Of a stretch of 32,000 bases of DNA, positions 13,501-32,000 are shown piece after piece (the stretch's first letter is position 1; every line of letters starts with the position of its first letter). The stretch lies in the NCBI GenBank assembly GCA_008080745.1, contig SHMX01000004.1, positions 120,001 to 152,000 of the forward strand, read 5' to 3'. Under the pieces are notes generated by a model. That model was not told the origin of the DNA and did no database searches. It saw only the letters and a list, made by a program, of their open reading frames with translations. The position numbers and the translations under genes were made by a program. This DNA comes from Candidatus Thorarchaeota archaeon (GTDB lineage: Archaea; Asgardarchaeota; Thorarchaeia; Thorarchaeales; Thorarchaeaceae).

Positions 13501-14787
13501 TCAATCTGATATCTCAAGAAGCGGTTGTCTTCCCTTACCTTGTGGAATAAGTGTGATAACACGATCTACTGATTGTTTCAATTCTTCCATATGTGTCACC
13601 ACGATGACCTGCTGAATCGAGTCTAACCCTTGAACTGCGTCTGGTAACCATCTACGTCTATAAGCATCCAAACCAGCACCTGGTTCGTCGAGTATCAATA
13701 AACCTGGAGGTGGACTAGCAATGGAATGTTTTTGGAGTGCAGTATTCATTCCCACACGCAACGCAAAATTGACACATACATCTTCCCCTCCAGATGCTGC
13801 AATCAAGGATACTTTGTTTCCCTTCAAATCATAGAGTGATATATCATAATCATCATCGATTACTAAATCACTATATTTATCGCCAAATATCTCTTTAAAT
13901 ATGGAACGAGCCTCATGTCTGATGTGGGGTCTCAGCTGAACTTCAGCTATATCGGGAATCGTTTTGAGAATTCTTTGTAATTGTTTTGAAACTTTCATCT
14001 CATGAGTTATTTCTTCGGGCCTGATTGAGATTTCTGGTTTATTCAATTCGGACTCTATGTCTTTTACTGATAGGACTACTTTATCCAGAAGAATTTTGAT
14101 AGGATCGATATCAAGGCTTGGACTATCAGTTTGAATCTTTTGCAGCGCAAGTTCTGCTTCTTTCAATTCGGTTTCCGAGGGCAATCTGGTCCGGATTTTT
14201 TCAAGATTGATCTTTGCTTCTTTAATCGATGTTAATTCCTTCTTTAGCGACCGGAATTCCTTTTTGGCCCTTGAACCTGTATTATCATATATACCCAACC
14301 CCATCATGTTGTAGAGATTCGATCTTCTTTTACTCGGCGTTGACCTTGACAGGCTATCAATTTCTCCCTGTCTTACGTAGGTTAATGCAGAAAATGCATG
14401 TCTATCCATTCCAAGCACACGTTCAATTTCTTCGTCTACTTTCTTTGGAGTACTCTCAATGGGTTTATGATCACCCTTAACAAATAGTTCTGCTTTTGTT
14501 TCGCCAGGATAAATTTTCCTGACAACGGTGTATGTTCTTTGGTTAATTGGAGCTGTGAAAGTGAGTTTTACTTTTCCCTTGGTTCTGCCATGTTTGATAA
14601 GCTCTTCAATCCTTCTAACGGTCTTGTCTTTTCTTGTAATTCTCTTGAATAATGCAAATTCAATAGCTTCTAAGATGGTGGTTTTTCCAGAACCATTTGG
14701 CCCAACAATTGCGAGAGAACCATTATGGAATTCTATTAGTTGATCAGTAAATACTTTGAAATTCTTAAGCTCCAGTGTTTCCAACAT
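13501..14787 (-). CDS. rad50: Rad50/SbcC-like SMC-family ATPase, very short coiled coil, no Zn hook
   Basis: LELKNFK, Walker A GPNGSGKT, Q-loop YVRQGEI, signature SGGE, Walker B LILDEP, H-loop VTH; only 428 aa and a single Cys. Confidence 0.85.
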   Translation of the reverse strand: MLETLELKNFKVFTDQLIEFHNGSLAIVGPNGSGKTTILEAIEFALFKRITRKDKTVRRIEELIKHGRTKGKVKLTFTAPINQRTYTVVRKIYPGETKAELFVKGDHKPIESTPKKVDEEIERVLGMDRHAFSALTYVRQGEIDSLSRSTPSKRRSNLYNMMGLGIYDNTGSRAKKEFRSLKKELTSIKEAKINLEKIRTRLPSETELKEAELALQKIQTDSPSLDIDPIKILLDKVVLSVKDIESELNKPEISIRPEEITHEMKVSKQLQRILKTIPDIAEVQLRPHIRHEARSIFKEIFGDKYSDLVIDDDYDISLYDLKGNKVSLIAASGGEDVCVNFALRVGMNTALQKHSIASPPPGLLILDEPGAGLDAYRRRWLPDAVQGLDSIQQVIVVTHMEELKQSVDRVITLIPQGKGRQPLLEISD

Positions 14788-14794
14788 CCTATAA

Positions 14795-15862
14795 TCACAC
14801 TCCCATAATACGTCCGAGAAAATCCATCAATTCATCAAGTCCCTTTTCCTCAGTCTGTTCAACATAATCTCTGATACTAGTTTCGATATTCAGTGGCTGA
14901 TTTAGTCTGATATCTCGTGGACCATAACATTCCCAATTAGGTTCAATATGGACAAAAAGAGAATTCAGTTTGCTTTCTGCATGCTGAAGAATTTTCACTC
15001 TATCTAGTCCATTCTCCGTTTCGGAGTCGATAGTTCCATTAACTCTAACAATGATTATTGAGCCATCCTTCTTTGGTGACAATTTTTCTAAAATCTTCTT
15101 CAAATAGGAATTAACCTCATCTGGCCCCATTCCAGTGATTTGAGCCTGAGGAAATTTGAACTCTCTGATATCGTTTATTTGCTCAGTTGTATACTCATTA
15201 CCTTGTTTATCACTATCAATAACTATGAGTTTCTTCGTTCCCCCAATTTCTTTATTCCAATTTACATAACACGTTGAACCTGGACGTCCAATGTCATATT
15301 CTTCATCTAACCAAAAACTATGTGCATGACCACATCCGTAATAATTGAAATGAATTGGCAATCGTTCCTTAGGAACGGGAATATGATGTGCGAATAAGAA
15401 GGCTGGATTGGTTTCTGGAATGATATCATTGAGTTTCCTCTGAAAGCTTCTCTCTCTAGTCCATGATATCAGGTGTATCTCGGTCTTCTTACCATCTATA
15501 TCTACTTCATGAAGTTTGTAGTCCGATTTACCCGTTGATTTCACAACACCGGCAGTTTCAAGACTGGTGATAGGACTCTGAATGTGATGATATCCAAAAG
15601 GAATATCATGATTTCCATGTACTAGAAAAACTTCGACTTTATCTTGGACACTCTTAAATAACTCCATTGCAAAATTCAAATCTTCCATTGATGGAAGTGG
15701 ATTATCAAACAAATCGCCTGTATGGACTAGGATATCTGGTGATTGCCTCATAGCCATACGAACAGCTTTTCTTAGACACTTTCGGACATCCTCTTTTCGT
15801 TCCACCAATTGAAATAGAGTATTTCCAAGATGTGAATCTGAAATATGAGCGATTCGTACCAT
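14795..15862 (-). CDS. mre11: Mre11/SbcD-family metallophosphoesterase nuclease
   Basis: HISDSHLG, HTGDLFD, HGNHD, AHH, GHAH, RPGS; likely start ATG 15862 with GGAG RBS; directly upstream of the Rad50-like gene. Confidence 0.88.
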   Translation of the reverse strand: MVRIAHISDSHLGNTLFQLVERKEDVRKCLRKAVRMAMRQSPDILVHTGDLFDNPLPSMEDLNFAMELFKSVQDKVEVFLVHGNHDIPFGYHHIQSPITSLETAGVVKSTGKSDYKLHEVDIDGKKTEIHLISWTRERSFQRKLNDIIPETNPAFLFAHHIPVPKERLPIHFNYYGCGHAHSFWLDEEYDIGRPGSTCYVNWNKEIGGTKKLIVIDSDKQGNEYTTEQINDIREFKFPQAQITGMGPDEVNSYLKKILEKLSPKKDGSIIIVRVNGTIDSETENGLDRVKILQHAESKLNSLFVHIEPNWECYGPRDIRLNQPLNIETSIRDYVEQTEEKGLDELMDFLGRIMGV

Positions 15863-16055
15863 TACGACAACTCCAATGAGTAGTTCCAATCAGGAGATCA
15901 TTACTTGCAAATCCTGAACTACCCTCAATACACTTTCTCTTATTCTAAAACCAATATTTCAATAATATTGTGATGTCTTAGAGATTCAGCAACTATTTAG
16001 AATTTGTTGGAGTTTATATTACTTAGAAATGATGAAGTAATGATAATTCTATCCG

Positions 16056-19267: not shown

Positions 19268-19851
19268 ATTTTTCCTCCGGTGATTCTAAAGAAAACACCT
19301 ACTACTTTTGGCGCCTTTCAAAATGAAATGACTTCGCTTCATATCGAATACTCTTTCAAAACTCTCAAAACTATATATAAAATAACAATAGTTCTCCAGA
19401 ATAGTTATTATAGCTTTATAATGCCTTAATTATATCTTTAGGTAATCATAGCAGTTATTTTCACACTGGTTTGCTGATTTTATCACATTTTTCATTAATT
19501 TTAGAACGATTGTAGAAATTCTCTTTCATAACCAACAAGTTGATTTACACATGATCTAAAAAGAAAAGTTCAAACAAGTTGAAACCTATGGCATAATCAT
19601 CAGATATGGAATTAGGTTTTTTTTCGATTTTATTTAGATTTCCTCTAAAAACGTGAGATTTCAGCAATCGTGACAAGTAATAATCAATCATAACATAGAT
19701 AAACAAAAATTAAGTTCTATTATGCCTTTTTTACTATTGTGCATTCATAATATGCCTCAATTATTATTATTTGATGTTAATATATCTGGATACACTTTCT
19801 CCCAAAATTGAAGATTTCTTGAAACAATACTTCTTTTGACGGTGATAAGAA
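19268..19851. promoter_or_regulatory. 584-bp AT-rich divergent control region upstream of the large operon
   Basis: No ORF in the track; several TATA-like tracts; repeated ATGCC-core motifs and an AACAAGTTGA direct repeat. Confidence 0.5.
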
Positions 19852-20607
19852 ATGATAGCAAAGCTCGAAAGTCAACTTACTCACATCTGTAAGGACTCGG
19901 GATACAGCTCAAAGATGATTGATGCTACATCGATTCTTCAAATGGCATTCAATAACCCTGATCGTAATATCATCAAAGCGAGAATCAAGTATTCTGGTCA
20001 AAATGAAAAAACATGGATTGTAGTTATAGTTGGCTTGAGGAGTAGTGTTCTGCAGCCATTCAACAAATTCACCAATATAGCTAGTGGCCAATACTCCCCC
20101 TGTGACATTTTTGGTATTGTTCCTTGCATCGCCCAACTTGTTCGGTTCGAATCTACAGGGCCCTCTCTGAGTGCAATTGTGAAAGACGATGTCACTCGGA
20201 TTGTTTTGGTCTTTGAAGGTGATTCAGAGGCTAGATTAGGACCCATTAACTCATTGGCAACCCGACTGTGGCGGTTCATGAAACGGTGGGATGAGTGGAC
20301 AGAGGTCCTACTGGGGATTTTGGAACGTGATCAATATGTTGGTGATTGGGAGCTAAATTGGCGTGAACTTTTGGCTGGTGAATCAGGTTTTGTAACGATG
20401 CCATGGTTTTCTCCTTTGCATTATGATAATCGAGTCTTAGCTATGGCAAGAATAGTAACAGCTTCCAAAGCACTTCTCACCTCTGTTTTGAGTGGTCAAC
20501 AAATGAGTGATTCAATGATAACGGGATTACTTGATTGGTTGGAAAACTTGGAACCTCTTCCAAGAATAGAGAGTGCTCCGTCAACAGATGAGGAGGTAAT
20601 GGTATAA
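19852..20607 (+). CDS. Hypothetical protein (operon gene 1)
   Basis: 251-aa ORF, GGTGA RBS; no recognised motif. Confidence 0.8.
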   Translation: MIAKLESQLTHICKDSGYSSKMIDATSILQMAFNNPDRNIIKARIKYSGQNEKTWIVVIVGLRSSVLQPFNKFTNIASGQYSPCDIFGIVPCIAQLVRFESTGPSLSAIVKDDVTRIVLVFEGDSEARLGPINSLATRLWRFMKRWDEWTEVLLGILERDQYVGDWELNWRELLAGESGFVTMPWFSPLHYDNRVLAMARIVTASKALLTSVLSGQQMSDSMITGLLDWLENLEPLPRIESAPSTDEEVMV

Positions 20608-20608
20608 A

Positions 20609-21076
20609 ATGCTAGTAAACGAATATCTGGGTAATAGTTGGAACGGAGAATTTGGTGTTCCGGACCTATCATGGTTATCTGGTGCAAAGGCTGGAATGCA
20701 GACTTTGAGTGAGCGGAGTCCTACATGGCTTTGGGATGATTTCATTACTGATATTCAAGAGATGATTGAATTAACACGAGATCTTGGATGCACTTTCCCA
20801 GGACAAATCCCCCGCCTTGGAGATGGGCTATCTGGTTCGATTCTTAGTGCACTTGGTGGGTATATCAGTATAACAGGATGTCTTATTGTTGAAGGTCTCT
20901 TCTTCCGAGTTTCTAGGAGGTATCACGAGGATGTGAAAATTGCATTGTCCGGTATTGAGATTCAATCGGTCTATGATGGTTTGGTTATTTCTGCTTCTGA
21001 TTTTAAGCGCCTTCATAACCTCGTAACAATTTGGGGCCCACTTGAGGAGATGCTGGCTGAGGAGGTCATAAAGTGA
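20609..21076 (+). CDS. Hypothetical protein (operon gene 2)
   Basis: 155-aa ORF, GAGGT RBS-like motif; stop overlaps the radA-like start (GTGA). Confidence 0.75.
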   Translation: MLVNEYLGNSWNGEFGVPDLSWLSGAKAGMQTLSERSPTWLWDDFITDIQEMIELTRDLGCTFPGQIPRLGDGLSGSILSALGGYISITGCLIVEGLFFRVSRRYHEDVKIALSGIEIQSVYDGLVISASDFKRLHNLVTIWGPLEEMLAEEVIK

Positions 21077-22137
21077 CAGATCTTGAGTCAGTTAGTGGAG
21101 TAGGCCCTGCAGCTGCAAAGAAATTGCGTGAAGTATTCGTGACCACAGCAGAACTACTCGCGGTTCAAAATCCCGTGGAACTTCAAGCGAAGACCAAACT
21201 TGGTGAAGGAACAGTTGATAAAATCATCAAGAATGCCCGAGAGCTGGTTGGGACTTTTGGTTTCAAGAGTGGACTTGAGGTCGAACAGGATATGGCGGAA
21301 CTACCACGGCTATCAACAGGTATTTCCAAACTTGATGATGAATTACTTGGCGGCATCGAGATTGGATCAATCGTTGAATTCTTTGGCCCATCAAGAGGTG
21401 GAAAAACTCAATGGGCGGCTCAACTTGCTGTTATGACTCAGCTACCTTTAGAACAGGGGGGTCTCGATGGAAGAGTACTTTGGCTGGATAGTGAGTCTTC
21501 TTTCAAGCCTTGGATTATCAGGGCTAATGCAATACGGTTTGGAATGGATCCAGATGTAGCACTTGGCAACATTGGAAGAGCGCAAATAATTCTAAGTAGT
21601 CAACTAATGGACCTCTTTGACTCCATACCGCAACTTTGTGCAGAGAATGATTACAAACTTGTTATTGTTGATTCGCTTACTGGTTTGTTTAGAGTGGAAT
21701 ATACCGGTCTAGAAATGTTGAAGGTACGTCAACAAGATATGAATGGTCTTCTAAATACGATGCGGAGAACTGCATCTGCAACAAACACCATTTTTGCATA
21801 TACTAACCATGTAATGGCAAAGATATCACTCTATGGAGGTAATCCAAATCATCCTGTGGGTGGACATACAATTTCACATGCTTCTGATTACAGATTCTAC
21901 ACGCGTAGATCAAAGAAAGACAAAAGGAAGTTGGACCTTCAAGATAATGCAGGAGTTCCGGAATTTAGCTTTGAATTAACTATTGGTTGGGGTGGATTCT
22001 ACGGCTCTAGTGCTGAGAAGAAGGAAGTTGAGCCCAAGATAAAGGAATACTTCGACAAACATGGTTTTGCGAAACCTGAATCAAGTCCTGATGAAGAATT
22101 GGAGGAGGACATTGTAGCGGCAGGTGAGATTGAGTGA
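21073..22137 (+). CDS. radA: RadA/Rad51-family recombinase, divergent full-length paralogue
   Basis: N-terminal HhH (LESVSGVGPAAAKKL), Walker A GPSRGGKT, LDSESSF, Walker B LVIVDS, L1 LFRVEYTG..RQ, L2 TNHV..PVGGHTISH; acidic tail. Confidence 0.9.
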   Translation: MTDLESVSGVGPAAAKKLREVFVTTAELLAVQNPVELQAKTKLGEGTVDKIIKNARELVGTFGFKSGLEVEQDMAELPRLSTGISKLDDELLGGIEIGSIVEFFGPSRGGKTQWAAQLAVMTQLPLEQGGLDGRVLWLDSESSFKPWIIRANAIRFGMDPDVALGNIGRAQIILSSQLMDLFDSIPQLCAENDYKLVIVDSLTGLFRVEYTGLEMLKVRQQDMNGLLNTMRRTASATNTIFAYTNHVMAKISLYGGNPNHPVGGHTISHASDYRFYTRRSKKDKRKLDLQDNAGVPEFSFELTIGWGGFYGSSAEKKEVEPKIKEYFDKHGFAKPESSPDEELEEDIVAAGEIE

Positions 22138-22592
22138 AACAAGAACGTGGAATGTTTAGGATTTATCGTTGTCCTCAATGCAATAATATTGGTTATACTC
22201 GTGTTGAATCTGAGGATGACTTGTCTGCGTGTAGTCTATGTCGGGGAATAATTTTACATGAGTCTGGCACACTCTATGCGGCAACCGTACAGGAATCTGT
22301 TGATTTAGTTCGAGAACTTGTGATTCTTTCCAAACAAAATGGTGAGTCTAGTAAACCAACAAGAGGTAGGGGTTTACGAAAACGCATTCTTACTATTATA
22401 ATATCTCTAATTGATTTGAATAGAGGCAAACCTGTTCCCTTACGAGAAATTCTCAGAGAATGTGTTGATGCCGATATAGCTCTAGAACGAGCGATGACCT
22501 TTCTTGAACTTCTTGAAACAGAAGGAATCCTATTGAATTTTGACTCTAAAATCAGTTTAAAGAAGGAGGTAATCCAAGATGGCAGAATCTAG
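22134..22592 (+). CDS. Zn-ribbon plus C-terminal winged-helix protein (DUF1922/DUF5817-like layout)
   Basis: CPQC...CSLC; C-terminal RILTIIISL...VPLREILREC...AMTFLELLETEGIL resembles an MCM-C/wHTH fold. Confidence 0.7.
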   Translation: MKQERGMFRIYRCPQCNNIGYTRVESEDDLSACSLCRGIILHESGTLYAATVQESVDLVRELVILSKQNGESSKPTRGRGLRKRILTIIISLIDLNRGKPVPLREILRECVDADIALERAMTFLELLETEGILLNFDSKISLKKEVIQDGRI

Positions 22593-23214
22593 TTCCAAAT
22601 CAAAATCTGGTGTAGTATGGGTTCCCAGAACTCCTAAGACGGTAAAAAGAAGCTCGATGATTAATCTGGTCAATCTATTACTGAGAGAAACTTCTCATCG
22701 AGTAACTGTACTCGATAAGTCTGAAGAGCCTGATCCAAAACTGTTTGTGGTTACCCGTATTGAATGGAGAGATCCTGATATCAGAAAACCACTCCTTCCC
22801 CAGTTACCGAGATTACTATCACTATTGGAGACCCTTAGAGGCACTCGTGGTGTTCCTACTGAGATTTATTTAGACAGTACAGATGGTATTGCGGTCTATC
22901 TACCTACTCATGAAACCGTTTCCACCTTGCCTGAAAAACCAAAAGAGTGCGTACGTCATTTGATGGATTTAGTAGAAAATCATGTTGAACATACATTGGC
23001 AACTATGCAAGAGGTAGAGGAGTATTTCTGGAAGACCGCCCGTAAAAAGGGATATAGTCCTGAAATTGTTGCGAAGATTGATCTAAAAGAGAAACACTTC
23101 GACTCACCAGAACATGTCTATAGGTTCCAATATCTGCTGCAAAAATATTTCTCAATACGTTTCCGCATTCACTCAAGTGAGTCTTGTTTACGTGTGGAGG
23201 CTGGTAGTTGCTAA
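22579..23214 (+). CDS. Hypothetical protein (operon gene 5)
   Basis: 211-aa ORF, GGAGGT RBS; overlaps both neighbours. Confidence 0.8.
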   Translation: MAESSSKSKSGVVWVPRTPKTVKRSSMINLVNLLLRETSHRVTVLDKSEEPDPKLFVVTRIEWRDPDIRKPLLPQLPRLLSLLETLRGTRGVPTEIYLDSTDGIAVYLPTHETVSTLPEKPKECVRHLMDLVENHVEHTLATMQEVEEYFWKTARKKGYSPEIVAKIDLKEKHFDSPEHVYRFQYLLQKYFSIRFRIHSSESCLRVEAGSC

Positions 23215-25178
23215 CAGATACGACCGACCCGCTATCCTGGTTTCCATACCTGCCAAGACCTCATCAGGACAAAGCGGTTTACCTCTCTGCAGAGGTCTTT
23301 GGGTCGAAGAACGTGGGATTACTATCTGCTGATTGTGGTGTGGGTAAAACTATCGCAGTATTATCCGGCTATTTGGCGGCTCGATATGATGATCCAACAT
23401 CTAGGTTATTCGCTCTAACTAGAACCCACTCACAATCGAAAGTATTTGAAGAAGAATTAAGCATACTAAGAGAACAATCACTTGCTATCACAGCCACTTC
23501 TATGGTGTCAAGAGTACATGTATGTCCAATTCGTGCTCAGATTTCTTCCAATACCTCAACGGGATTCACAAAAGCTTGTTCCCAAATGGTCAAGATGGGT
23601 AGGTGCACTCATTATTGGAACATGTATAAGCGACATAGAGAAGAGGGAAAACTCACTATACGAAATCAAATTCGTTCTCTTCTGGAAGAGCTTCTAGATA
23701 CTGGAGTAGTTAGCAGAGACCGAGCAGAAGACTTTGCAAATCTTCATACTCTCTGTCCATATGAAGTGCTTCGCTGGTGTGCTAGAAATAGTCGTGTTGT
23801 GATTGGACCTTATAGTTATATGTTCAAATCCCGTGTGCGTGATTCTCTGTTGGCTTCTGTGGGAGTCCATCTTCATGAATTGGACTTACTAATTGATGAA
23901 GCCCATAATCTTCCTTCTCATGTTCTTGATTCTGAAACAGCACGGTTGACTGGGGAAGACCTGAGATATCTGAAAGAGCATAGTCGAGAATTGGTTAGAG
24001 AGACAAGAGTCGATTGGATTGGAGAAGTTGTTGATTTTCTTTGGGAAACTCTCATGGTAAAATTGGATAGTTTTGGAAATAGACGCGAAATAAAACTGGA
24101 TAAATGGGATGTAGTTCCTCGCTTTATTGAGAAAGAGAGTCTTGACCTTTTGGTTCAATCCCATGATTTGAGTCTTGGTGACCCAGAAAATGCTGTACAT
24201 GCTGAGAATCCCTTTGATCGATTTGTTGATTTTTTGTTGATTGGAAGTAAAGCTGTTGAAAGCGAAGATTGGCATATATCGCTTAACTTGATGAAAAACT
24301 GGCATGGAGAAAAGACACCGCTTAAGACCAATCTTGCTATCCGCCCTTTGAATGCAGCTGGATTAACTGCACCTGTCCTAAGAGGTGCTAGATCAGCGTT
24401 GCTGATGAGTGGAACACTCAGACCATTAGAACACTATGGGAAGCTTCTTGGTGTTTCGGGTGCTTTAAAGGAGGACCTAGAGAGTCCATATCCCAAAGGT
24501 AGTAGACTTGTTCTTATTGATAAGAAACTGTCGACAAAATACACAGAGAGAAGTTCCGAACTCTGGAGACTGTTAGCTGAGCGTATCAATGCAGTTCTGA
24601 ATACTATGCCAGCAAATAAGAGTGCCATGATTGCCTTTCCTAGTTATCATATGATGCGTGAGATTTTGAGCTATTCCATCGACACCGGTTATCGTGGGAA
24701 GATAATTGAGGATCGTGGTGCTCGTCTGGAGTTTGTAACCGAGGCGATCGAAGAACGTCCTCAAGCGGTCTTCTGTGTATATGGTGGAAAATTCAGTGAA
24801 GGAATTGATATTGTAAAAGATGGTTCTAGTATGATTGACCTAATTATTGGTGTTGGTATTCCTTTTAGCCCACCAACCAGCTATCAGCAAGCAATTCAGG
24901 ATTGGTACAATCGGAAATTTGGTGAAGGTTTAGGGTATTACTACTCGTCGGTTGTACCATCATTACGTCAGGTTGCTCAATTGATTGGCCGTCTTAGAAG
25001 ATCCCCTTCTGATTGGGGTGTGGTTACTCTTCTAGATAATCGGTTTATGAGATATTTGTCAATTCTGGGTGATGGTATCGTTTCTGATATTTGGCCTTAT
25101 GAGAGTGTATCTGAGATTCGTTCTGCTATCACATCCTTTGTAGAAATGAGAATGGGTGATAATTGTGAGATATTCTAA
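23208..25178 (+). CDS. xpd: XPD/Rad3/DinG-family Fe-S DNA helicase
   Basis: Q motif RPHQ, Walker A ADCGVGKT, four Cys of the Fe-S domain (VCP, KAC, GRC, LCPY), DEAHN, SGTL, GGKFSEGID, QLIGRLRR. Confidence 0.93.
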   Translation: MLTDTTDPLSWFPYLPRPHQDKAVYLSAEVFGSKNVGLLSADCGVGKTIAVLSGYLAARYDDPTSRLFALTRTHSQSKVFEEELSILREQSLAITATSMVSRVHVCPIRAQISSNTSTGFTKACSQMVKMGRCTHYWNMYKRHREEGKLTIRNQIRSLLEELLDTGVVSRDRAEDFANLHTLCPYEVLRWCARNSRVVIGPYSYMFKSRVRDSLLASVGVHLHELDLLIDEAHNLPSHVLDSETARLTGEDLRYLKEHSRELVRETRVDWIGEVVDFLWETLMVKLDSFGNRREIKLDKWDVVPRFIEKESLDLLVQSHDLSLGDPENAVHAENPFDRFVDFLLIGSKAVESEDWHISLNLMKNWHGEKTPLKTNLAIRPLNAAGLTAPVLRGARSALLMSGTLRPLEHYGKLLGVSGALKEDLESPYPKGSRLVLIDKKLSTKYTERSSELWRLLAERINAVLNTMPANKSAMIAFPSYHMMREILSYSIDTGYRGKIIEDRGARLEFVTEAIEERPQAVFCVYGGKFSEGIDIVKDGSSMIDLIIGVGIPFSPPTSYQQAIQDWYNRKFGEGLGYYYSSVVPSLRQVAQLIGRLRRSPSDWGVVTLLDNRFMRYLSILGDGIVSDIWPYESVSEIRSAITSFVEMRMGDNCEIF

Positions 25179-25758
25179 GAAGAAAAATTACTTCTGGAGC
25201 TTTGTTACTGGATCATTGGTTGGTTTTGTTCTGTATGTATTTCTAAACCAGACTATATTTGATGTTGTCATTGGTGTAATGGGAATTGGAATTGGAATTG
25301 GGATTATACTTCTATGGACCCAATTATTCAAGGCAAAAATCATGTGGAGTGAAACCCATGGATGTTTGGCCATTAATCGCAAGTATACTGTCGATGTATA
25401 TGCAGGATGTATTATGACAAGTGTTCCTCTTGGTATTGATCTAAGTCGTTCAGCTCGAAAAGTGCTACGAGCTATCGCTACCAGGATGAAAAATGATATC
25501 GACTGTGAGATTAGTTTTTTTGTCATTCGGCCTGTTCATAAATTCCAAACGAGGGTCGGACTACTGGTTTCACGTAATACCTTCCGTTTAGTGAATGGGC
25601 TTACTCAATCCGACTCTCTTCTAAAGCAACTGAATCAGGATGTAATGACCTTAGAGTCCGCTTTGAGAGCTGCCTATCCTCACACGCCTGTTGAAAGAGC
25701 ATCAGCTGATGATTTGCTACTTGTTACTACTGGAGGAGTCTACACCCATGAAATCTAA
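25156..25758 (+). CDS. Hypothetical membrane protein, two N-terminal TM helices plus soluble domain
   Basis: FWSFVTGSLVGFVLYVFL and VVIGVMGIGIGIGIILLW; exact start uncertain. Confidence 0.75.
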   Translation: MIIVRYSKKKNYFWSFVTGSLVGFVLYVFLNQTIFDVVIGVMGIGIGIGIILLWTQLFKAKIMWSETHGCLAINRKYTVDVYAGCIMTSVPLGIDLSRSARKVLRAIATRMKNDIDCEISFFVIRPVHKFQTRVGLLVSRNTFRLVNGLTQSDSLLKQLNQDVMTLESALRAAYPHTPVERASADDLLLVTTGGVYTHEI

Positions 25759-26050
25759 ACTACGTAGTTCCTTAGAGATACCCTCCTCTATAGAGCCAAA
25801 TGATGTGATGGAAGCACTTCGAATCGGACATGGATACCAGTGGACTAGGTTGGTTTTAGAACCAAAATTCATGGCTCATGGAAATCCTCCTTCTTCCAAG
25901 CTTCCAGAGTTGTTATTTATTGGGATAAAAACCCTCATTCTTTCTGGCGGTTCTCCTGAGTTTCCTGAGAGAATTGAGAAGATGATTGATGCAATTTGTA
26001 GAAGCTCGAAACGAAAACAGAAATTATCTGGAGGAAGGTATCATGGGTAA
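25748..26050 (+). CDS. Small hypothetical protein (100 aa)
   Basis: ATG 25748 preceded by GGAGGAG; MKSKLRSSLEIP...; overlaps both neighbours. Confidence 0.65.
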   Translation: MKSKLRSSLEIPSSIEPNDVMEALRIGHGYQWTRLVLEPKFMAHGNPPSSKLPELLFIGIKTLILSGGSPEFPERIEKMIDAICRSSKRKQKLSGGRYHG

Positions 26051-28382
26051 ACCGTTAATTCTTGGTTCAGAACCAGAAAAAGATCCACTAGAATCACGGA
26101 CTCGACAAAGCATGATTGTGAGCTCTGATACAGAGATAGATTGGGATAGTCGAAGTGTAGAACAAAAGTGGTCATTTCCGATTCTTATTGGCTTTATCAC
26201 AATATTAGTAGTATTGTTTCAACCTATTCTTTCGATTTGTTTAACTATTATCATCCTATCTACCCTTTATTTTCTTCCTACTGTTTCAGCAAGAAGAGAA
26301 ATCGATTCTATCAGAAATAGTCAATGGATTATACTGAAGCCACGTGAAAATATTCTCTCGGAAACCGATGAAACTCTACTATATCGGGATAATGATGATA
26401 ATCGTCATTTAATAGGGTTAGAATTGTTTGAACCAAGTAACATGTTGTTTGGCTCTTTGGGAAGCATGATACGCTCTCTCAATACAGACCATGGTTTTGT
26501 GCTTCGTGTTTCTATGCGATTGGAATCGATAGAAGAAGTAATTAATCAAGATAGAATTCGTTCTAATAAGGAAGAGTATCTGGAATCACTTGGTAAATCT
26601 GGCAGGCATCGATTCATTTCTGTTAGAGGCGGGCTCTGGTCTACTTATGTAATGCTTGTTGGTCATCTTAGAGATTTACATTCGGTTTCTACCTTTGAAG
26701 CTGCTATACATGGGGCAGTTCCAACATCAGGTTGGAAACAAATCGAGAATAAAGATCTCGCTAAACGATTGACCATTCAGAAGAGCGATTATTTATCCCG
26801 GTTTTATGCTCTGGGTCATGAGCTATCGGAATGGCTTGTTCAATTACCCAGTGAGTTAGCGCCCGAAGTAGGAAGCAATGTGCCCAGTGAATTCCTATCT
26901 CCGATTAAAACTATAGCTTCTGATTATCCACTTGGAGTCGCTGTGAATCCTGAAACACTCCAGACTGGGCCTGTAGTCGGATTTAGTCATAATGATTTAG
27001 TGAATGGAACTTTAGTATGTGGTGGCACCAACGCAGAACGAAAGCGGATACTTGCACTCCTCATCCAGGCATTGATTGCTAAAGAAAAACGTGTTCTCCT
27101 CATAACTGGCAATCCAAATTATGGGGATTTGGCTGGTCTCACAGAGAATGTAATTACCTTGGAGCTGGGTCATGACTTTGTTCTTAACCCCGTTGATCCC
27201 GACAATGTACCAAGGACCGAGTATGTTGGGCAATTGATTTCTGCTTTGGAGATTTTGGCAGGAGCTGACCTTACAGGAGCTGCTGATCTTGAGATAGCAC
27301 TAAACCGAACAGTAGCAATTGGGAATACCACTGTGGCAGATGTTAGATTTGATACTGCAGAAGAATTGATGGATTCCCCATCGATTGATAAGACCTCTCA
27401 GACAACAAAACCAAGTAATAAGTCCCTAGTGGGTCTTGATGCAGTCCGACTATTGCATGAGGGATCTGGTGCTCGTGCATTTTATGGAACTCAAACCATC
27501 CCTATCCGTGATTTCACTAAAATTCCCTATACAGTTCTTACCATTAACCTAGGGTCTGTCGAACTGGATACATTTGCATTTGATTTATTGATGATGAAAT
27601 TAGCCGGTCTGAAACAAGATTCCGATTTTGTAGTGATTTTTAATGAACCACTAAATCTTGTTGCTAGAAATCGACGACATTATTACAGAATTCCATGGAT
27701 AGAGTTCCTTGCTAAACGTGTGAAAAAGAGGGGCCCATTAGTTGTAGCAATGGAACACCCTGCTGATTTTTCACCTGCAACTATTGGATTGTTGACTTCA
27801 TGTGTTTCATCTAGGTTACGAGAGTCAGTGGATGTAAAAGAGGCTGTTGATCTTCTTGGTCTAAGTGTTATTCAAACTGGGATGCATAGTAAAGCACGTC
27901 ATTCTTCAAGAGAAACTTCCTTTCTACGGGTTATCCCTGATGGAATGGCTGTTATTGCAAATACTGGTGGTGAATTAGGTTATCCCGTAAAACTGAATGA
28001 TTCCCCAGACCTCTCGGAGATGACATCAACCACAGATGTAACAAAGCGTCTGGCTGAATATACGACTTGTGTAAAAGAAAGTAGCTCTAGGAAGACAGAT
28101 TCATTAATTGAGCATGTGATGGGCCGGGATTACGAACATGGCATAGCAGTATTACGTCTTCTTCAAAGATATGAACCCCTTACCCAAGAGGCTGTTAGAA
28201 AATTCATCTCTACTACAACTGATGATGTTCCTGATATAGAAGCCATTTTGATGAAATTAGAACGTGGAAGTTTGATTCTGAAGGGACATGAAATTCACAG
28301 TGGTGTCTCTTATTTGAACTATCGATTGACAATGAAAGGAACAATGGCGTTGAGGCAAAACGGGGAGGATTTGATGAAATGA
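26043..28382 (+). CDS. Membrane-anchored HerA/VirB4-fold pseudo-ATPase with C-terminal winged helix
   Basis: Likely start ATG 26043 (GGAGG RBS); TM hairpin near the N-terminus; HerA-like scaffold TLVCGGTNAERK / VLLITGNPNY / LNPVD / VIFNEP / VVAMEHPADF with destroyed Walker A and D-to-N Walker B; wHTH-like end LMKLERGSLI...YRLTMKG. Confidence 0.65.
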   Translation: MGKPLILGSEPEKDPLESRTRQSMIVSSDTEIDWDSRSVEQKWSFPILIGFITILVVLFQPILSICLTIIILSTLYFLPTVSARREIDSIRNSQWIILKPRENILSETDETLLYRDNDDNRHLIGLELFEPSNMLFGSLGSMIRSLNTDHGFVLRVSMRLESIEEVINQDRIRSNKEEYLESLGKSGRHRFISVRGGLWSTYVMLVGHLRDLHSVSTFEAAIHGAVPTSGWKQIENKDLAKRLTIQKSDYLSRFYALGHELSEWLVQLPSELAPEVGSNVPSEFLSPIKTIASDYPLGVAVNPETLQTGPVVGFSHNDLVNGTLVCGGTNAERKRILALLIQALIAKEKRVLLITGNPNYGDLAGLTENVITLELGHDFVLNPVDPDNVPRTEYVGQLISALEILAGADLTGAADLEIALNRTVAIGNTTVADVRFDTAEELMDSPSIDKTSQTTKPSNKSLVGLDAVRLLHEGSGARAFYGTQTIPIRDFTKIPYTVLTINLGSVELDTFAFDLLMMKLAGLKQDSDFVVIFNEPLNLVARNRRHYYRIPWIEFLAKRVKKRGPLVVAMEHPADFSPATIGLLTSCVSSRLRESVDVKEAVDLLGLSVIQTGMHSKARHSSRETSFLRVIPDGMAVIANTGGELGYPVKLNDSPDLSEMTSTTDVTKRLAEYTTCVKESSSRKTDSLIEHVMGRDYEHGIAVLRLLQRYEPLTQEAVRKFISTTTDDVPDIEAILMKLERGSLILKGHEIHSGVSYLNYRLTMKGTMALRQNGEDLMK

Positions 28383-30586
28383 CGACGATATCCGACGTTC
28401 CGAATCCAATTGAACAGATTCTGCATTCCGCAGGGATAAAACCCCGTGGTGTTCAAAAGAAAGCCATCAAAGCTGGGATTTATGATGGTAAAAGCATCAT
28501 GGTTTCGAGCCCTACGGGATCTGGTAAGACTCTCATCGGAGAAATGGCTCTCCTCCGTGCAGTTCTGAGTGGTAAGAAGGGCCTTTATTTGGTTCCCCTT
28601 AGGGCCCTCGCAGTACAAGTAGCGTCAGTTTTGAAAGAACGATATTTTGATTCCGAGATAAGTGTCGGATTAAGTACTGGTGACTATCATACAGATGGTG
28701 AAGAACTATCTACTTATGATGTAATTGTCACCACCTATGAACGAACAGATTCGCTTCTTCGGAAAAAGACGTCTTGGCTAGGAGAGATTGGAACAGTAGT
28801 AATTGATGAGATTCAGACTTTAGCGGAAACTCAAAGAGGAGCTAGATTAGAATCTACTATCATCCGACTAAAACATCTAATTCCAGAAATACAGCTGATT
28901 GTTTTATCTGCAACCATTGGAGCTCCAGATGAACTTGCAGAATGGTTGAGGTGTGAACTCGTAGTATCAAACGACCGTCCGATTCCACTTCATTCTAACA
29001 TAATCACTACAAGTGACAAGAGTAATGCAGTGAAAGAGATTGTTATGACTACTGTCCAGAGTAATGGTCAGTGTTTAGTATTTCATAGAACCCGTCGTGA
29101 AGCAGAGGTTCAGGCGATAAGACTTTCTGCAGATGTTGGTCGTCAATTCACAGCAGAAGAGAAGAAGAAAATAGATGACGAGTTAGGTTCTGTAGTTAAT
29201 TGGGACGTTAAACTACCTGCAGGTCTAAAAGCACTTCTTCATGATGGTACTGCATATCACCATGCTGGACTGAATTATCTTGCCCGGAGATTGGTTGAGG
29301 ATTTATTCAGACGTGGTATGATTCGCGTAATCTGTGCAACCACTACTCTAGCATCAGGAATCGATCTTCCTGCTCGTACTGTTGTTCTTACATCTGTGAA
29401 AGAGCCATCAAATCACAATCAATTCATGTCTGGAAATAAAATTCATCAGATGCTTGGAAGAGCAGGACGTCCAGGATACGACAAACGGGGGGTAGGTGTA
29501 CTGCTTGCTGGAAGCTCTGGAGAAGCAGATGTTATCAGACGTAAATACTTCAAAACTTCATCTGTTACGGAGAATAAATCTGAGATTCTTCAGCCAAAGT
29601 ATGATCGATTGTTTAGTACTCTGAATGAAACAAATGCCGTAACTGAACAGCTACTTGTTGGATTTGATATGTTTGGGTCCACCACGGTTGAAAACATTGA
29701 ACAAAGCTTATTCTCTGACTCTTTTCTGATGTATTGTAGTATTCGTGACACGCGATCACCACACAGAATTCTTCAATTAGATGAACTATCATCAGAAACT
29801 GCAATCGAACGACATGCCCTCCAAGATGCTATTAGGTCTGCAAGACAGAATGTGCTTGCAAGTGTAAAAATTAGAGAAAGCACTGATTCTGTAATTGGAG
29901 GGATTGTAACTGGATGGGAAGGAGGTAATTTCACATCACGATTTTCTGCAAAGCTTTCACCTGATGGTACCGTGGAGGGTCCAATGTGCTCTTGTGGCAT
30001 CCCTTTTGACTCGAATGGTTTACTTTGTCCTCATTTGGTGGCCTTGGGTTTTACTGCGTCAAAGGAATTAGGTACATTAGCTGATTATGTAATTCCACTC
30101 GCATTATCTGAGAGTAATCCATTAGGAGTTCTTACAAGATTAGGACTTATAGAAGGCTCTGAAGATGGTGAATATAGGATAACCCATCTAGGTAGTGTGG
30201 TTAATCGTCTATATCTTAGCATCCCAACCATCAGAGAAATGATTGCTTTGTTACCTTTCACCAGTGATGTAGAAGATCTTCTTTGGCTTCTAAGACATTT
30301 GGCTTCAATTGAAACCGGGAGTTCTCTTGATGACTCCTATGAAAATCTTGTAGCTGGTGTTGCAAGCACGGATATGGAAATTAGTAAACTGGCAGAGAGT
30401 CTTGAACTACATGTTGGTGATGCTTACGGCCTTTTAGAAACATCAAGATGGCTTCTATCTGCAATCTCTGCAGTGAGTGAAATAGGAGGATTTGAAGAAT
30501 TGGTACAAAAATCAACGAACTTGCTGAAATCGTTGGATAATCGTTTAGGAAGAACTACTCCAGAAAATCAGGAGGATGAGGAATAA
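28379..30586 (+). CDS. Ski2-like (Hel308-type) SF2 helicase with inserted SWIM zinc finger
   Basis: GVQKKA, SPTGSGKT, DEIQ, SAT, HHAGL, TTTLASGIDLPA, QMLGRAGRPGYD; CSC-x10-CPH at 29987-30034. Confidence 0.92.
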   Translation: MTTISDVPNPIEQILHSAGIKPRGVQKKAIKAGIYDGKSIMVSSPTGSGKTLIGEMALLRAVLSGKKGLYLVPLRALAVQVASVLKERYFDSEISVGLSTGDYHTDGEELSTYDVIVTTYERTDSLLRKKTSWLGEIGTVVIDEIQTLAETQRGARLESTIIRLKHLIPEIQLIVLSATIGAPDELAEWLRCELVVSNDRPIPLHSNIITTSDKSNAVKEIVMTTVQSNGQCLVFHRTRREAEVQAIRLSADVGRQFTAEEKKKIDDELGSVVNWDVKLPAGLKALLHDGTAYHHAGLNYLARRLVEDLFRRGMIRVICATTTLASGIDLPARTVVLTSVKEPSNHNQFMSGNKIHQMLGRAGRPGYDKRGVGVLLAGSSGEADVIRRKYFKTSSVTENKSEILQPKYDRLFSTLNETNAVTEQLLVGFDMFGSTTVENIEQSLFSDSFLMYCSIRDTRSPHRILQLDELSSETAIERHALQDAIRSARQNVLASVKIRESTDSVIGGIVTGWEGGNFTSRFSAKLSPDGTVEGPMCSCGIPFDSNGLLCPHLVALGFTASKELGTLADYVIPLALSESNPLGVLTRLGLIEGSEDGEYRITHLGSVVNRLYLSIPTIREMIALLPFTSDVEDLLWLLRHLASIETGSSLDDSYENLVAGVASTDMEISKLAESLELHVGDAYGLLETSRWLLSAISAVSEIGGFEELVQKSTNLLKSLDNRLGRTTPENQEDEE

Positions 30587-32000
30587 TGGTAATCTCTGAG
30601 AAAAAGGAATCTAGTGTTATTGAATCTGACACAACGGAAGATGCTGAAACTGAATATGACATTGTTCGAGCTCTTCAGAAGACAGAGCATCTTACTCATA
30701 CATATGAGAATGGACTGGTACTAGGGGTACGATTAGAAGGTGTAACTGGAACACGAGGGGTACACCTTGATATCGTACATATTCTAGACCTTAGAAAAGC
30801 AGAATTCGGCAAGACCAATTTGGCCATGCGTGCTGCTGTATTGGAGAGTATGAATCGAAGCCTTGAATCACTTCTTGAAGATGTTGGTTTGAATGATTTT
30901 CTTGAGGAAAGAACATTCATCACTGCATGGGGTCGGGTTCGCATTCCAACAATTGGTTCCGCCAAGCACAATTCCAGATCAATGATTCACGAAACTCGAA
31001 CAGTCTATGTGATTGTGAAAGACACAAAACCATCTACTGATTTTTCTTGGCTCACTGAAACAAAAAGAGTGGTGACCCCTGACGAGTTTGCTTTAGTTCG
31101 AATTACCGACACCAAGTCTCTTCTTACCAACCTCCAGAAACAGATTGCATCAGAAAAATGGAAGATACTAGAAAGGGGTTTCCGTGATAGTTGGTTAGGA
31201 ATCATCTTCTCTTCTATAATTTTGGTGGGTATAGGAAGTATTGTTGGTGTTCTACTTGTCAATAATGGCAATGTCGCTTTGCCAATATTTGCAATTATCG
31301 GTGGAGTTCTGCTAGGCGGATACTTTCTTAGCTCTTCTCGTAGACATCTCTCCGATTTTCGAGAAATGGTTTGTGTGGAGGAACAAAAGCTCTCTGAGAT
31401 GTCTGATAAGACGCGGATAGAAGAATCTGTCCTTGAGAATATGGATAGTATGCGTTTACTAGGTGATTTGAATTTTGTAGTTTCACCACTGATGGCAAAG
31501 GCTGGGAATGCATTATCTGACCTAGATCTTGATGGTGCTGTTAGCTTTGCGTGTTCGGTTATGGATGAATGTATGCGTCTATCTTCTGCAGATTTGAGTA
31601 AATTAGAGGGTTCATTCATAGGTGGTGATGAAGGTATTGCAAAATTTGTTGGGTTATTTGGAGATTTGGGTGCTGAAGAATATGAAACAGACTTGGCATT
31701 AGCTTATGTCGCACTAACAGGCTATACTATCAGTCCCATATCTGCTGAAGAGGTCATCACTCATATAGCCACTCTAAATAACGCTCTATACCATATTGGA
31801 GCTCTTAGACCTGATATAAAAGAAATAATCGACGATTTACTGAATTCGCGTGCAGGTATGGAGGCTGTAGAATATCTAAATGAGGAGCTAAGCAAACCAG
31901 AAGAACCTATTCCGGAACCTAGTTTGCCATCCAAGAAACAAGAAGAAGCAACAATCGAAGATAAAGAAGACAGCTCTGAAGAATTAGATGCACTTAAAGA
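30586..32000 (+). CDS. Hypothetical two-TM membrane protein, runs off the right edge (over 470 aa; absent from the ORF track)
   Basis: Manual translation from ATG 30586 (TAATG overlap): MVISEKKESSVIES...; open to 32000; TM pair WLGIIFSSIILVGIGSIVGVLLV / LPIFAIIGGVLLGGYFL; acidic, Pro-rich end. Confidence 0.8.
   Translation, partial: MVISEKKESSVIESDTTEDAETEYDIVRALQKTEHLTHTYENGLVLGVRLEGVTGTRGVHLDIVHILDLRKAEFGKTNLAMRAAVLESMNRSLESLLEDVGLNDFLEERTFITAWGRVRIPTIGSAKHNSRSMIHETRTVYVIVKDTKPSTDFSWLTETKRVVTPDEFALVRITDTKSLLTNLQKQIASEKWKILERGFRDSWLGIIFSSIILVGIGSIVGVLLVNNGNVALPIFAIIGGVLLGGYFLSSSRRHLSDFREMVCVEEQKLSEMSDKTRIEESVLENMDSMRLLGDLNFVVSPLMAKAGNALSDLDLDGAVSFACSVMDECMRLSSADLSKLEGSFIGGDEGIAKFVGLFGDLGAEEYETDLALAYVALTGYTISPISAEEVITHIATLNNALYHIGALRPDIKEIIDDLLNSRAGMEAVEYLNEELSKPEEPIPEPSLPSKKQEEATIEDKEDSSEELDALK

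Follow-up and report, generated by a model that had tools for sequence, protein, structure and literature searches.

The question raised by a 32,000-nucleotide stretch of a Candidatus Thorarchaeota genome (the window, G000:C4:120001-152000, in a genome of 3.16 Mb that is 98% complete) is what purpose is served by an operon in which enzymes of homologous recombination are encoded together with membrane proteins. An initial annotation, made from the letters alone, had described eleven genes on one strand, from position 19,852 to the end of the window, with every junction overlapping or 1 nt apart, and had expected the operon to run on. Both statements held. The open reading frame (ORF) list places all eleven on the + strand with junctions of -23 to +1 nt, and reading on through the downstream contig added the end of the eleventh gene and four further genes. 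The operon is thus composed of 15 coupled genes, named g01 to g15 along the + strand; it extends 3.5 kb beyond the window, and g15 ends 5 bp from a convergent gene. The answer favored here, although only tentatively, is that the operon encodes one vertically inherited, membrane-anchored recombination machine of dedicated paralogues, possibly engaged in DNA uptake or cell-to-cell exchange coupled to homologous recombination.

The same annotation had assigned the window genes to a divergent RadA (g03), a Zn-ribbon protein with a winged helix (g04), an Fe-S XPD helicase (g06), a SWIM-bearing Hel308-like helicase (g10), a transmembrane (TM)-anchored protein of HerA/VirB4 fold (g09), two other TM proteins (g07 and g11) and four proteins of no recognized family (g01, g02, g05 and g08). 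Each of these assignments was upheld by the family scans, alignments, hydropathy averages and fold comparisons given below, the winged helix of g04 by a weak match.

Conserved gene order in relatives had been named in that annotation as a mark of a dedicated system, and such conservation was found. The order g01 to g15 is identical in every Thorarchaeota locus recovered (~38 genomes, including SMTZ1-45, AB_25, OWC2 and one closed chromosome), and it is broken at contig ends only. Protein identity across these ~38 other genomes ranges from 23 to 87%, and the recurrence of the same 15 genes in the same order indicates that the arrangement is not due to chance. The flanks are conserved as well: a divergent GH3-family gene lies upstream, and a convergent 685-amino-acid (aa) gene, a 198-aa gene, a giant gene and a 665-aa gene lie downstream. 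Full-length orthologues were recovered with the g09 profile from 52 of 76 sampled genomes of the Thorarchaeota family. Two of five genomes without a g09 match retain g11 and/or g05 on other contigs, and the apparent absence of g09 from these two is therefore ascribed to assembly breaks. On this sequence evidence, the block is a stable, vertically inherited chromosomal unit and not an island.

The existence of separate canonical radA, xpd and hel308 genes, also named in the initial annotation, was examined by scoring operon and housekeeping copies from the same genome against NCBIfam equivalog or subfamily models. Housekeeping radA, xpd, hel308 and fen1 are all present at other sites; the canonical copies score above the cut-offs and the operon copies below them. 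For RadA, the housekeeping protein reaches 473 bits and g03 258.4 (cut-off 259); for XPD (TIGR00604, rad3), the values are 315 bits and 156 for g06 (cut-off 247); for FEN1 (fen_arch), 459 bits and 97.8 for g15 (cut-off 352). Housekeeping Hel308 scores 818 bits over its full length, against 356 bits over the core only for g10. The operon copies share 23-39% identity with their housekeeping counterparts (RadA′ 39%, XPD′ 23%). Between Thorarchaeota genera, canonical RadA is 82-83% identical and RadA′ only 53-64%, which shows that the operon set evolves faster than the housekeeping set. The catalytic motifs are kept in RadA′, XPD′, Hel308′, g12 and FEN1′, according to family alignments of 19-35 orthologues per operon gene.

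RadA′ (g03) is a full-length protein with an N-terminal helix-hairpin-helix (HhH) region and a RecA core (Pfam Rad51, 1.3e-52, plus HHH_5), in which the GxxxxGKT Walker A motif and the Walker B Asp are conserved in 25 sequences. In a maximum-likelihood tree, the canonical RadAs form a 100/100 clade that leaves out all operon-linked RadA′ proteins; as the tree has no outgroup, it establishes neither the root nor a single origin of RadA′. By family score and tree position, g03 is a divergent RadA paralogue and not an orthologue of the housekeeping archaeal RadA. Two RadA clades within single Asgard genomes have been reported from Heimdall-, Njord-, Gerd- and, less firmly, Lokiarchaea, with Thorarchaeota unmentioned and gene context absent (Matsuo et al. 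2025, PMC12722695). That second clade coexists with canonical RadA, as RadA′ does here, and may correspond to RadA′. In the same published tree, none of the Asgard RadA clades includes eukaryotic Rad51 or Dmc1 (PMC12722695). One Thorarchaeota genus has, in addition, a second RadA-like gene of very divergent sequence, directly 5′ of g03 in the g02 position (L022:16160-17269 in G007, and also L054 and L055), with a branch length of 2.7 in the tree.

XPD′ (g06) carries DEAD_2, HBB and Helicase_C_2 domains (Pfam), and its Walker A motif, DEAH box and four Fe-S cysteines are conserved in 34 sequences; from these features and its rad3 score below the cut-off, it is classed as a divergent XPD/Rad3-family Fe-S helicase paralogue. 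The housekeeping XPD gene is itself followed, ~0.9 kb 3′, by a gene for a 228-aa Rad51-family (RadB-like) protein (G000:C2:269162-272587), a second adjacency of XPD and a RecA paralogue in this genome.

Hel308′ (g10) has DEAD and Helicase_C domains and a Ski2/Hel308-type core, and its C-terminal half has diverged. Hel308 equivalog models match it only from residue 6 to ~450, at 279-356 bits against cut-offs of 887-1216, and the full Hel308 architecture (core, winged helix, ratchet and C-terminal HhH) was not recovered with the NCBIfam models. The C-terminal half bears an invariant SWIM-type insert, CxC-x10-CxH (C537, C539, C550 and H552), a motif that is absent from canonical Hel308. Two short RecA-fold proteins, g12 with a canonical GPAGSGKT motif and g14 with a degenerate P-loop, are related to g03 at 96-99% hhalign probability; the three are mutual paralogues, and these were the only relations detected by hhalign between operon families. 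FEN1′ (g15; Pfam XPG_I, 3.4e-17) conserves the metal-binding acidic residues D27, D75, E148, E150, D169, D171 and D220 in 26 sequences, as well as a C-terminal QxxLxxW motif that resembles a PCNA-interacting peptide (PIP) box and may link FEN1′ to PCNA.

The core of this gene set appears to be older than the Thorarchaeota operon. A sister family within the same taxonomic order (G025) has the arrangement g03-g04-g05-g06-x-x-g09-g10, followed by a g11-like gene and homologues of the 198-aa and giant proteins, with every gene coupled to the next and in one orientation. Split homologues of g09 occur in five further Asgard families as two ORFs, the first resembling g07 plus the N-terminal part of g09 and bearing TM helices, and the second (~520 aa) comprising the core and winged helix. 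The split g09 lies within ~10 kb of a Hel308′ with the same CxC...CxH motif, usually near a divergent RadA and sometimes near g12-like, g04-like or FEN1′ genes. These linked Hel308′ proteins score 439-550 bits on the g10 profile hidden Markov model (HMM), against 369 for the canonical, motif-less Hel308 of this genome. Canonical RadA was found elsewhere in the Asgard genomes checked, with the exception of G065 (86% complete). RadA′, the SWIM-bearing Hel308′ and a g09-like protein form a core that is linked in other Asgard families also. Two incidental observations were made. An Imm5-like immunity protein (Pfam, 2.6e-44) is encoded just 3′ of the split g09-like gene in a closed genome of another Asgard family (L065:12251-12766, G060). 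A 2.1-kb contig filed as 'Desulfuromonadales bacterium' (L056, MAXT01000013.1) carries g09-g10 at 47% identity and is probably a mis-binned Thorarchaeota contig.

The tie to the membrane was sought in family-averaged hydropathy. Conserved TM hairpins were found in g07 (2 helices), g09 (2), g11 (2) and g13 (~4). Since the helix counts are even and signal peptides are absent, the soluble domains of these proteins would be cytoplasmic. In g07 (31 orthologues), an N-terminal hairpin precedes a ~140-aa cytoplasmic domain. The g07 and g09 HMMs match the same split ORF in other Asgard families, and g07 may on this sole basis be distantly related to the N-terminal part of g09; hhalign did not confirm the link. 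In g11, an alpha/beta N-domain, a long two-helix membrane hairpin, a helical C-domain and an acidic tail are seen in an AlphaFold2 (AF2) model with a predicted local distance difference test (pLDDT) score of 78. Foldseek with this fold against the Protein Data Bank (PDB) returned nothing at E <= 0.001, VIA-align returned generic long-helix matches only, and the AlphaFold database clusters contained only its own orthologue. A HEPN/nucleotidyltransferase-associated bundle was considered for its helical domain (residues 286-421) and was rejected, as Z ~8 is within helical-bundle noise.

The membrane protein g09 starts with a two-helix TM hairpin and an N-domain, continues in an NTPase core whose P-loop is degenerate, and ends in a winged helix. 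Pfam contains no match to it, and all of its database homologues are named 'hypothetical protein'. Its AF2 model (mean pLDDT 67, ~88 in the core) matches VirB4 best (4ag5; Z 26.9, root-mean-square deviation 2.8 Å over 318 residues, g09 residues 310-676), followed by DndH-C (Z 24.5), HerA (Z 24.1), TrwB (Z 20.7) and FtsK (Z ~15), and full-length TrwK/VirB4 aligns over residues 115-687. The P-loop reads GG-x4-R in 33 of 33 orthologues, with an invariant Arg352 at the site of the Walker A Lys and no Ser/Thr after it. Of the 33 sequences, 30 retain the Walker B Asp, which is Asn in this genome (residue 553, in the region of window position 27642). The Asp-to-Asn change noted in the initial annotation is thus lineage-specific, and only the loss of the P-loop is family-wide. 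It follows that g09 very probably does not hydrolyze ATP in the usual way, and the invariance of the Arg suggests that something is still bound there.

A VirB4-fold protein might also be taken as the vestige of a conjugative element or provirus, either domesticated or still selfish, whose own recombination and replication genes came with it. Proteins of this fold are a hallmark of conjugative elements, and paralogous recombination genes are frequent in large viruses and plasmids. However, the operon has the same chromosomal neighbors in many genera and contains no integrase, tRNA target or relaxase; no relative of g09 was found in a collection of 2.9 million viral contigs; its GC content is only slightly above that of its surroundings; and the split between RadA′ and canonical RadA predates the divergence of the sampled Asgard families. 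An origin of this kind is accordingly regarded as very improbable.

The fold of g09 also raises the possibility of an envelope-associated defense or exclusion system directed against incoming viral or plasmid DNA, similar to HerA-SIR2, HerA-DUF4297 or Hachiman-type systems. The g09 core matches the HerA subunits of SIR2-HerA and DUF4297-HerA as well as DndH, Hel308-like helicases resemble HamB, and the operon proteins evolve at the faster pace described above for RadA′. Against this, the PADLOC matches are generic, and apart from a weak hit for g12 (mad8, 1.3e-4) no other operon protein has a defense match. The strictly vertical gene order and conserved flanks across the whole family are unlike patchy defense islands, a set of three RecA-family proteins, one of them a complete RadA, is atypical of defense, and no toxin-like or abortive-infection effector was recognized in the operon. 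Defense is therefore considered improbable. The PADLOC matches of XPD′ to DinG and of Hel308′ to HamB were discarded as evidence of defense, as the housekeeping copies score as high or higher (housekeeping XPD scores higher than XPD′ on DinG). Elsewhere in the window, at 13501-15889 on the - strand, lies a gene pair that had earlier been described as Mre11 plus a miniature hook-less Rad50. Its 428-aa ABC-type ATPase scores best on PADLOC defense models (mad3, 1.3e-36, plus LmuB, PbeC and AriA), and the pair may be a defense-type ATPase-nuclease module and not a canonical Mre11-Rad50.

To return to the membrane-anchored recombination machine, a physical connection between g09 and the enzymes was sought by structure prediction for the most consistently co-occurring pair, g09 and Hel308′. 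The score used was the median ipSAE of three runs, with a mark that was reached by 58 of 80 solved complexes and by 2 of 110 mismatched pairs. The pair g09(290-778, numbered from the MGK start) and Hel308′(395-735) scored 0.66, and the highest of 3 controls reached 0.01; at least 64% of contacts recur between runs, with partner pLDDT of at least 66. In the predicted interface, the AFYGTQ motif and C-terminal winged helix of g09 meet the strands of the Hel308′ SWIM insert (499-538) and residues 614-647, and in the alignments both surfaces are invariant or nearly so. The prediction supports binding of Hel308′ by g09.

In g04, all four cysteines of a CxxC...CxxC motif are at least 90% conserved, and the C-terminal half gave a weak profile match to the MCM C-terminal winged helix (E 0.005-0.014). 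Orthologues of g01 occupy the same position in 19 loci; it has no Pfam, NCBIfam, PADLOC or PDB-profile match. The position of g02 is conserved in 18 loci, with the second RadA-like gene replacing it in a few genera, and it has no family match in Pfam, NCBIfam or PADLOC. The 28 orthologues of g05 have a mean column identity of 53%; g05 is also present in the sister family (L019 of family f2), and no family or PDB match was found. Orthologues of g08 are 89-119 aa long in 24 loci and share conserved residues; it has no match in Pfam or NCBIfam. Profile searches of PDB sequences with g01, g05 and g07 gave nothing, or a single chance hit at E 1.7, and a search of the ESM Atlas gave models with a pLDDT of 0.39 and no usable hits for g01 and g11. 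The operon contributes at least six protein families without known relatives, in addition to a catalytically eroded VirB4-fold scaffold.

Two genes downstream of the operon appear to belong to the same system. They encode a 198-aa protein with ~5 TM helices and a 2617-aa giant protein. The giant has a signal-like N-terminus and, at its C-terminus, a TM anchor; it also contains prenyltransferase-like alpha/alpha-toroid repeats as well as MG2 and Ig-like domains. In four other Thorarchaeota genera both genes lie a short way 3′ of the operon, and in the sister family (G025) both lie inside it, directly 3′ of the g11-like gene and on the same strand; their linkage in two different arrangements speaks for the two proteins being parts of the same system. 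The pair is bracketed by genes for ~670-aa soluble proteins, both on the - strand and without a Pfam match (L002:16495-18552 = G000:C4:155494-157551 and L003:7436-9433 = G000:C4:166435-168432), which are conserved there in other genera. These could have a regulatory role or be additional components of the machine.

A mechanism can be proposed from these components. In it, g09 and the hairpin proteins g07, g11 and g13 would together build a ring-like platform on the inner side of the membrane; of this, the VirB4 fold and the motif loss of g09 are observed, and the ring assembly is inferred. Hel308′ would dock on g09 through its SWIM insert and the winged-helix region, as the predicted contact suggests, and would supply the motor that g09 lacks, reeling in or unwinding DNA at the membrane. 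XPD′ could work in the opposite polarity on the other strand, if Hel308′ moves 3′-5′ and XPD′ 5′-3′ as is usual for their families. RadA′ would then load on the resulting single-stranded DNA (ssDNA), aided by g12, with its active-looking motifs, and by g14, with its degenerate P-loop, in the way that Rad51 paralogues assist Rad51. FEN1′ may trim flaps or resect ends, possibly with PCNA. The envelope-facing part, and the link to the outside, would come from the 198-aa membrane protein with its five helices and from the 2617-aa surface protein with its Ig-like repeats.

Several observations weigh against an exchange function. No VirB6/CedA-like channel, VirB2/CedA1-like pilin, relaxase or nuclease-translocase was recognized in family scans or by sequence, with g13 and the 198-aa protein not folded. 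The polytopic candidates for a channel are g13 (~4 TM helices) and the five-TM 198-aa protein, neither with a Pfam match; no small ORF in the operon consists of a hairpin only (the g07 hairpin comes with its 140-aa domain), and pilins are too divergent to be excluded by sequence. All TM proteins of the operon are hairpins with very short outer loops, and almost nothing is exposed outside. Having lost the Walker A Lys and the Ser/Thr, g09 cannot work as VirB4 or CedB do. There is no recognizable fold or family for g01, g02, g05, g08 and g11, and the g09-Hel308′ contact is a model score and not a measurement. Three Thorarchaeota genomes that are 90-92% complete show none of g05, g09 and g11; the operon may be dispensable in these or simply absent from the assemblies. 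The proposal in the initial annotation of a membrane-tethered paralogous toolkit for DNA uptake or exchange stands in part. The dedicated paralogues, the gene order, the TM hairpins and the predicted docking of Hel308′ on g09 agree with it; the transfer of DNA is deduced only, with no VirB6- or pilin-like part identified and no canonical P-loop.

The main rival explanation holds that the operon encodes a membrane-tethered complex for repair, recombination or processing of the cell's own chromosome (for example at stalled forks, in DNA-membrane attachment or in segregation), in which no DNA crosses the membrane and g09 is an FtsK/HerA-like scaffold with a DNA-binding winged helix. The entire enzyme content is a toolkit for homologous recombination or fork repair; g09 has TM helices, a motor-like core and a C-terminal winged helix in the same order as FtsK, with cores that match HerA (Z 24) and FtsK (Z 15); the hairpins have minimal outer loops; the PIP-box-like motif of FEN1′ would provide a link to PCNA; and no channel or pilin was recognized. 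However, a full housekeeping set already exists, and another set that evolves fast calls for a role of its own. Among the fold matches of g09, VirB4 ranks above both HerA and FtsK, and it is hard to fit to an internal task that the operon is tied genomically, in two families, to a polytopic membrane protein and a giant surface protein. A complex confined to the cell's own chromosome is consequently thought unlikely, though it has more in its favor than the other alternatives.

The features of the locus are collected in the table below. The region 5′ of g01 is presumed to be the promoter region: its GC content is 0.32, against ~0.41 in the operon, and a GGTGA Shine-Dalgarno-like motif lies immediately 5′ of the g01 start, as seen in the sequence and in comparison with a locus of the same genus (L026). 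A shared promoter or operator motif 5′ of g01 was not detected by eye, the upstream regions being too divergent between genera. Public sequencing runs that match this DNA number two, both DNA runs from marine sediment metagenomes and probably the source sample.

Table. Features of the operon and its surroundings. Plain ranges are window positions; ranges prefixed G000:C4 are genome coordinates.
Feature	Position	Strand	Junction with next gene	Description
Upstream region	19268..19851	.		AT-rich intergenic region between divergent GH3 gene and g01; presumed promoter region
g01	19852..20607	+	1-nt spacer	251 aa, soluble; first operon gene
g02	20609..21076	+	4-nt overlap	155 aa
g03	21073..22137	+	4-nt overlap	RadA′
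g04	22134..22592	+	14-nt overlap	Zn-ribbon and winged helix, 152 aa
g05	22579..23214	+	7-nt overlap	211 aa, soluble
g06	23208..25178	+	23-nt overlap	XPD′, 656 aa
g07	25156..25758	+	short overlap, start fixed via orthologue alignment	2-TM hairpin membrane protein
g08	25691..26050	+	short overlap, start fixed via orthologue alignment	small soluble protein; likely start ATG at 25748, giving an orthologue-like ~100 aa
g09	26046..28382	+	4-nt overlap	VirB4/HerA-fold membrane protein; longest ORF from 25986
g10	28379..30586	+	1-nt overlap	Hel308′ with SWIM-type insert
g11	30586..32000 (window-cut) = G000:C4:150586-152145	+		519 aa
g12	G000:C4:152066-152842	+		RecA-fold P-loop protein; start probably later
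g13	G000:C4:152790-153785	+		~4 TM helices
g14	G000:C4:153769-154488	+		RecA-fold, degenerate P-loop
g15	G000:C4:154499-155488	+		FEN1/XPG nuclease
198-aa gene	G000:C4:157831-158427			~5 TM helices; no Pfam match
Giant gene	G000:C4:158560-166413			2617-aa surface protein

If the proposed machine exists, it would be a second recombination toolkit that is tied physically to the membrane, with a recombinase, two RecA-fold helpers, two helicases of opposite polarity, a flap nuclease and a genomically attached giant surface protein. The operon provides a genomic context for a second RadA lineage in Asgard archaea; a second Asgard RadA clade, which may correspond to RadA′, has so far been seen only in phylogenies (PMC12722695). 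The question of a dedicated Asgard pathway of DNA exchange and recombination also becomes one of testable biochemistry. Full-text searching of the literature turned up no account of this operon, nor of a SWIM-bearing Hel308 or of VirB4-like genes from Asgard archaea; in the initial annotation, too, no named system of this composition had been recognized.

The nearest known systems are Ced of Sulfolobales and Ted of Thermoproteales, DNA importers domesticated from type IV secretion systems. The likeness lies in a membrane-anchored VirB4/HerA-fold protein accompanied by small hairpin membrane proteins, in a chromosomal and vertically kept locus. Ted loci adjoin herA and rad50 (PMC9905601), so recombination genes are found beside them too, and the complementary VirB4-like paralogues CedB and CedD of Ced, which match different parts of the VirB4 N-domain (bioRxiv 10.1101/2024.09.27.615246), recall the relation proposed for g07 and g09. 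The differences are that g09 has neither the Walker A Lys nor the Ser/Thr, that no CedA/VirB6-like channel or CedA1/VirB2-like pilin was recognized in the operon, and that no sequence similarity was detected between the operon proteins and those of Ced or Ted. The operon, moreover, has dedicated recombination paralogues within it and a helicase predicted to sit on its VirB4-like protein.

The mre11-rad50-herA-nurA operon likewise combines a HerA-superfamily ring protein, a nuclease and recombination functions. However, no NurA, Mre11 or Rad50 domain is present in any of the proteins described here, g09 is membrane-anchored with a degenerate P-loop, and the operon contains a FEN1-type nuclease, two superfamily 2 (SF2) helicases and three RecA-family proteins. 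Because the catalytic P-loop expected of a VirB4-like motor was not found, and because only the ring fold is shared with HerA-NurA, the operon was not filed under a known system. Natural transformation (ComEC, ComFA, DprA, RecA and RadA/Sms) offers a functional analogy only, in which a helicase at the membrane pulls ssDNA toward a recombinase with loaders; there are no homologous parts beyond the general RecA and SF2 folds.

Asgard archaea are the closest archaeal relatives of eukaryotes, in which HELQ, the RAD51 paralogues, XPD-family helicases (FANCJ, RTEL1) and XPG/FEN1-family nucleases (EXO1, GEN1) cooperate. It is conceivable, though unlikely on the evidence at hand, that the operon represents an ancestral Asgard envelope-spanning apparatus for DNA exchange and recombination, in which work is divided between a housekeeping RadA and an exchange-dedicated RadA′, in partnership with RecA-fold paralogues and a helicase of Hel308 type. 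Such an apparatus would be a prokaryotic precursor or counterpart of the Rad51/Dmc1 and HELQ/RAD51-paralogue arrangements of eukaryotes, and would, if real, bear on the origin of sex. The eukaryotic set is neither membrane-anchored nor encoded together, and the likeness is one of families: the same ones recur in both, namely a Hel308-type helicase, a recombinase with catalytically unequal paralogues, an Fe-S XPD-family helicase and a Rad2-family nuclease.

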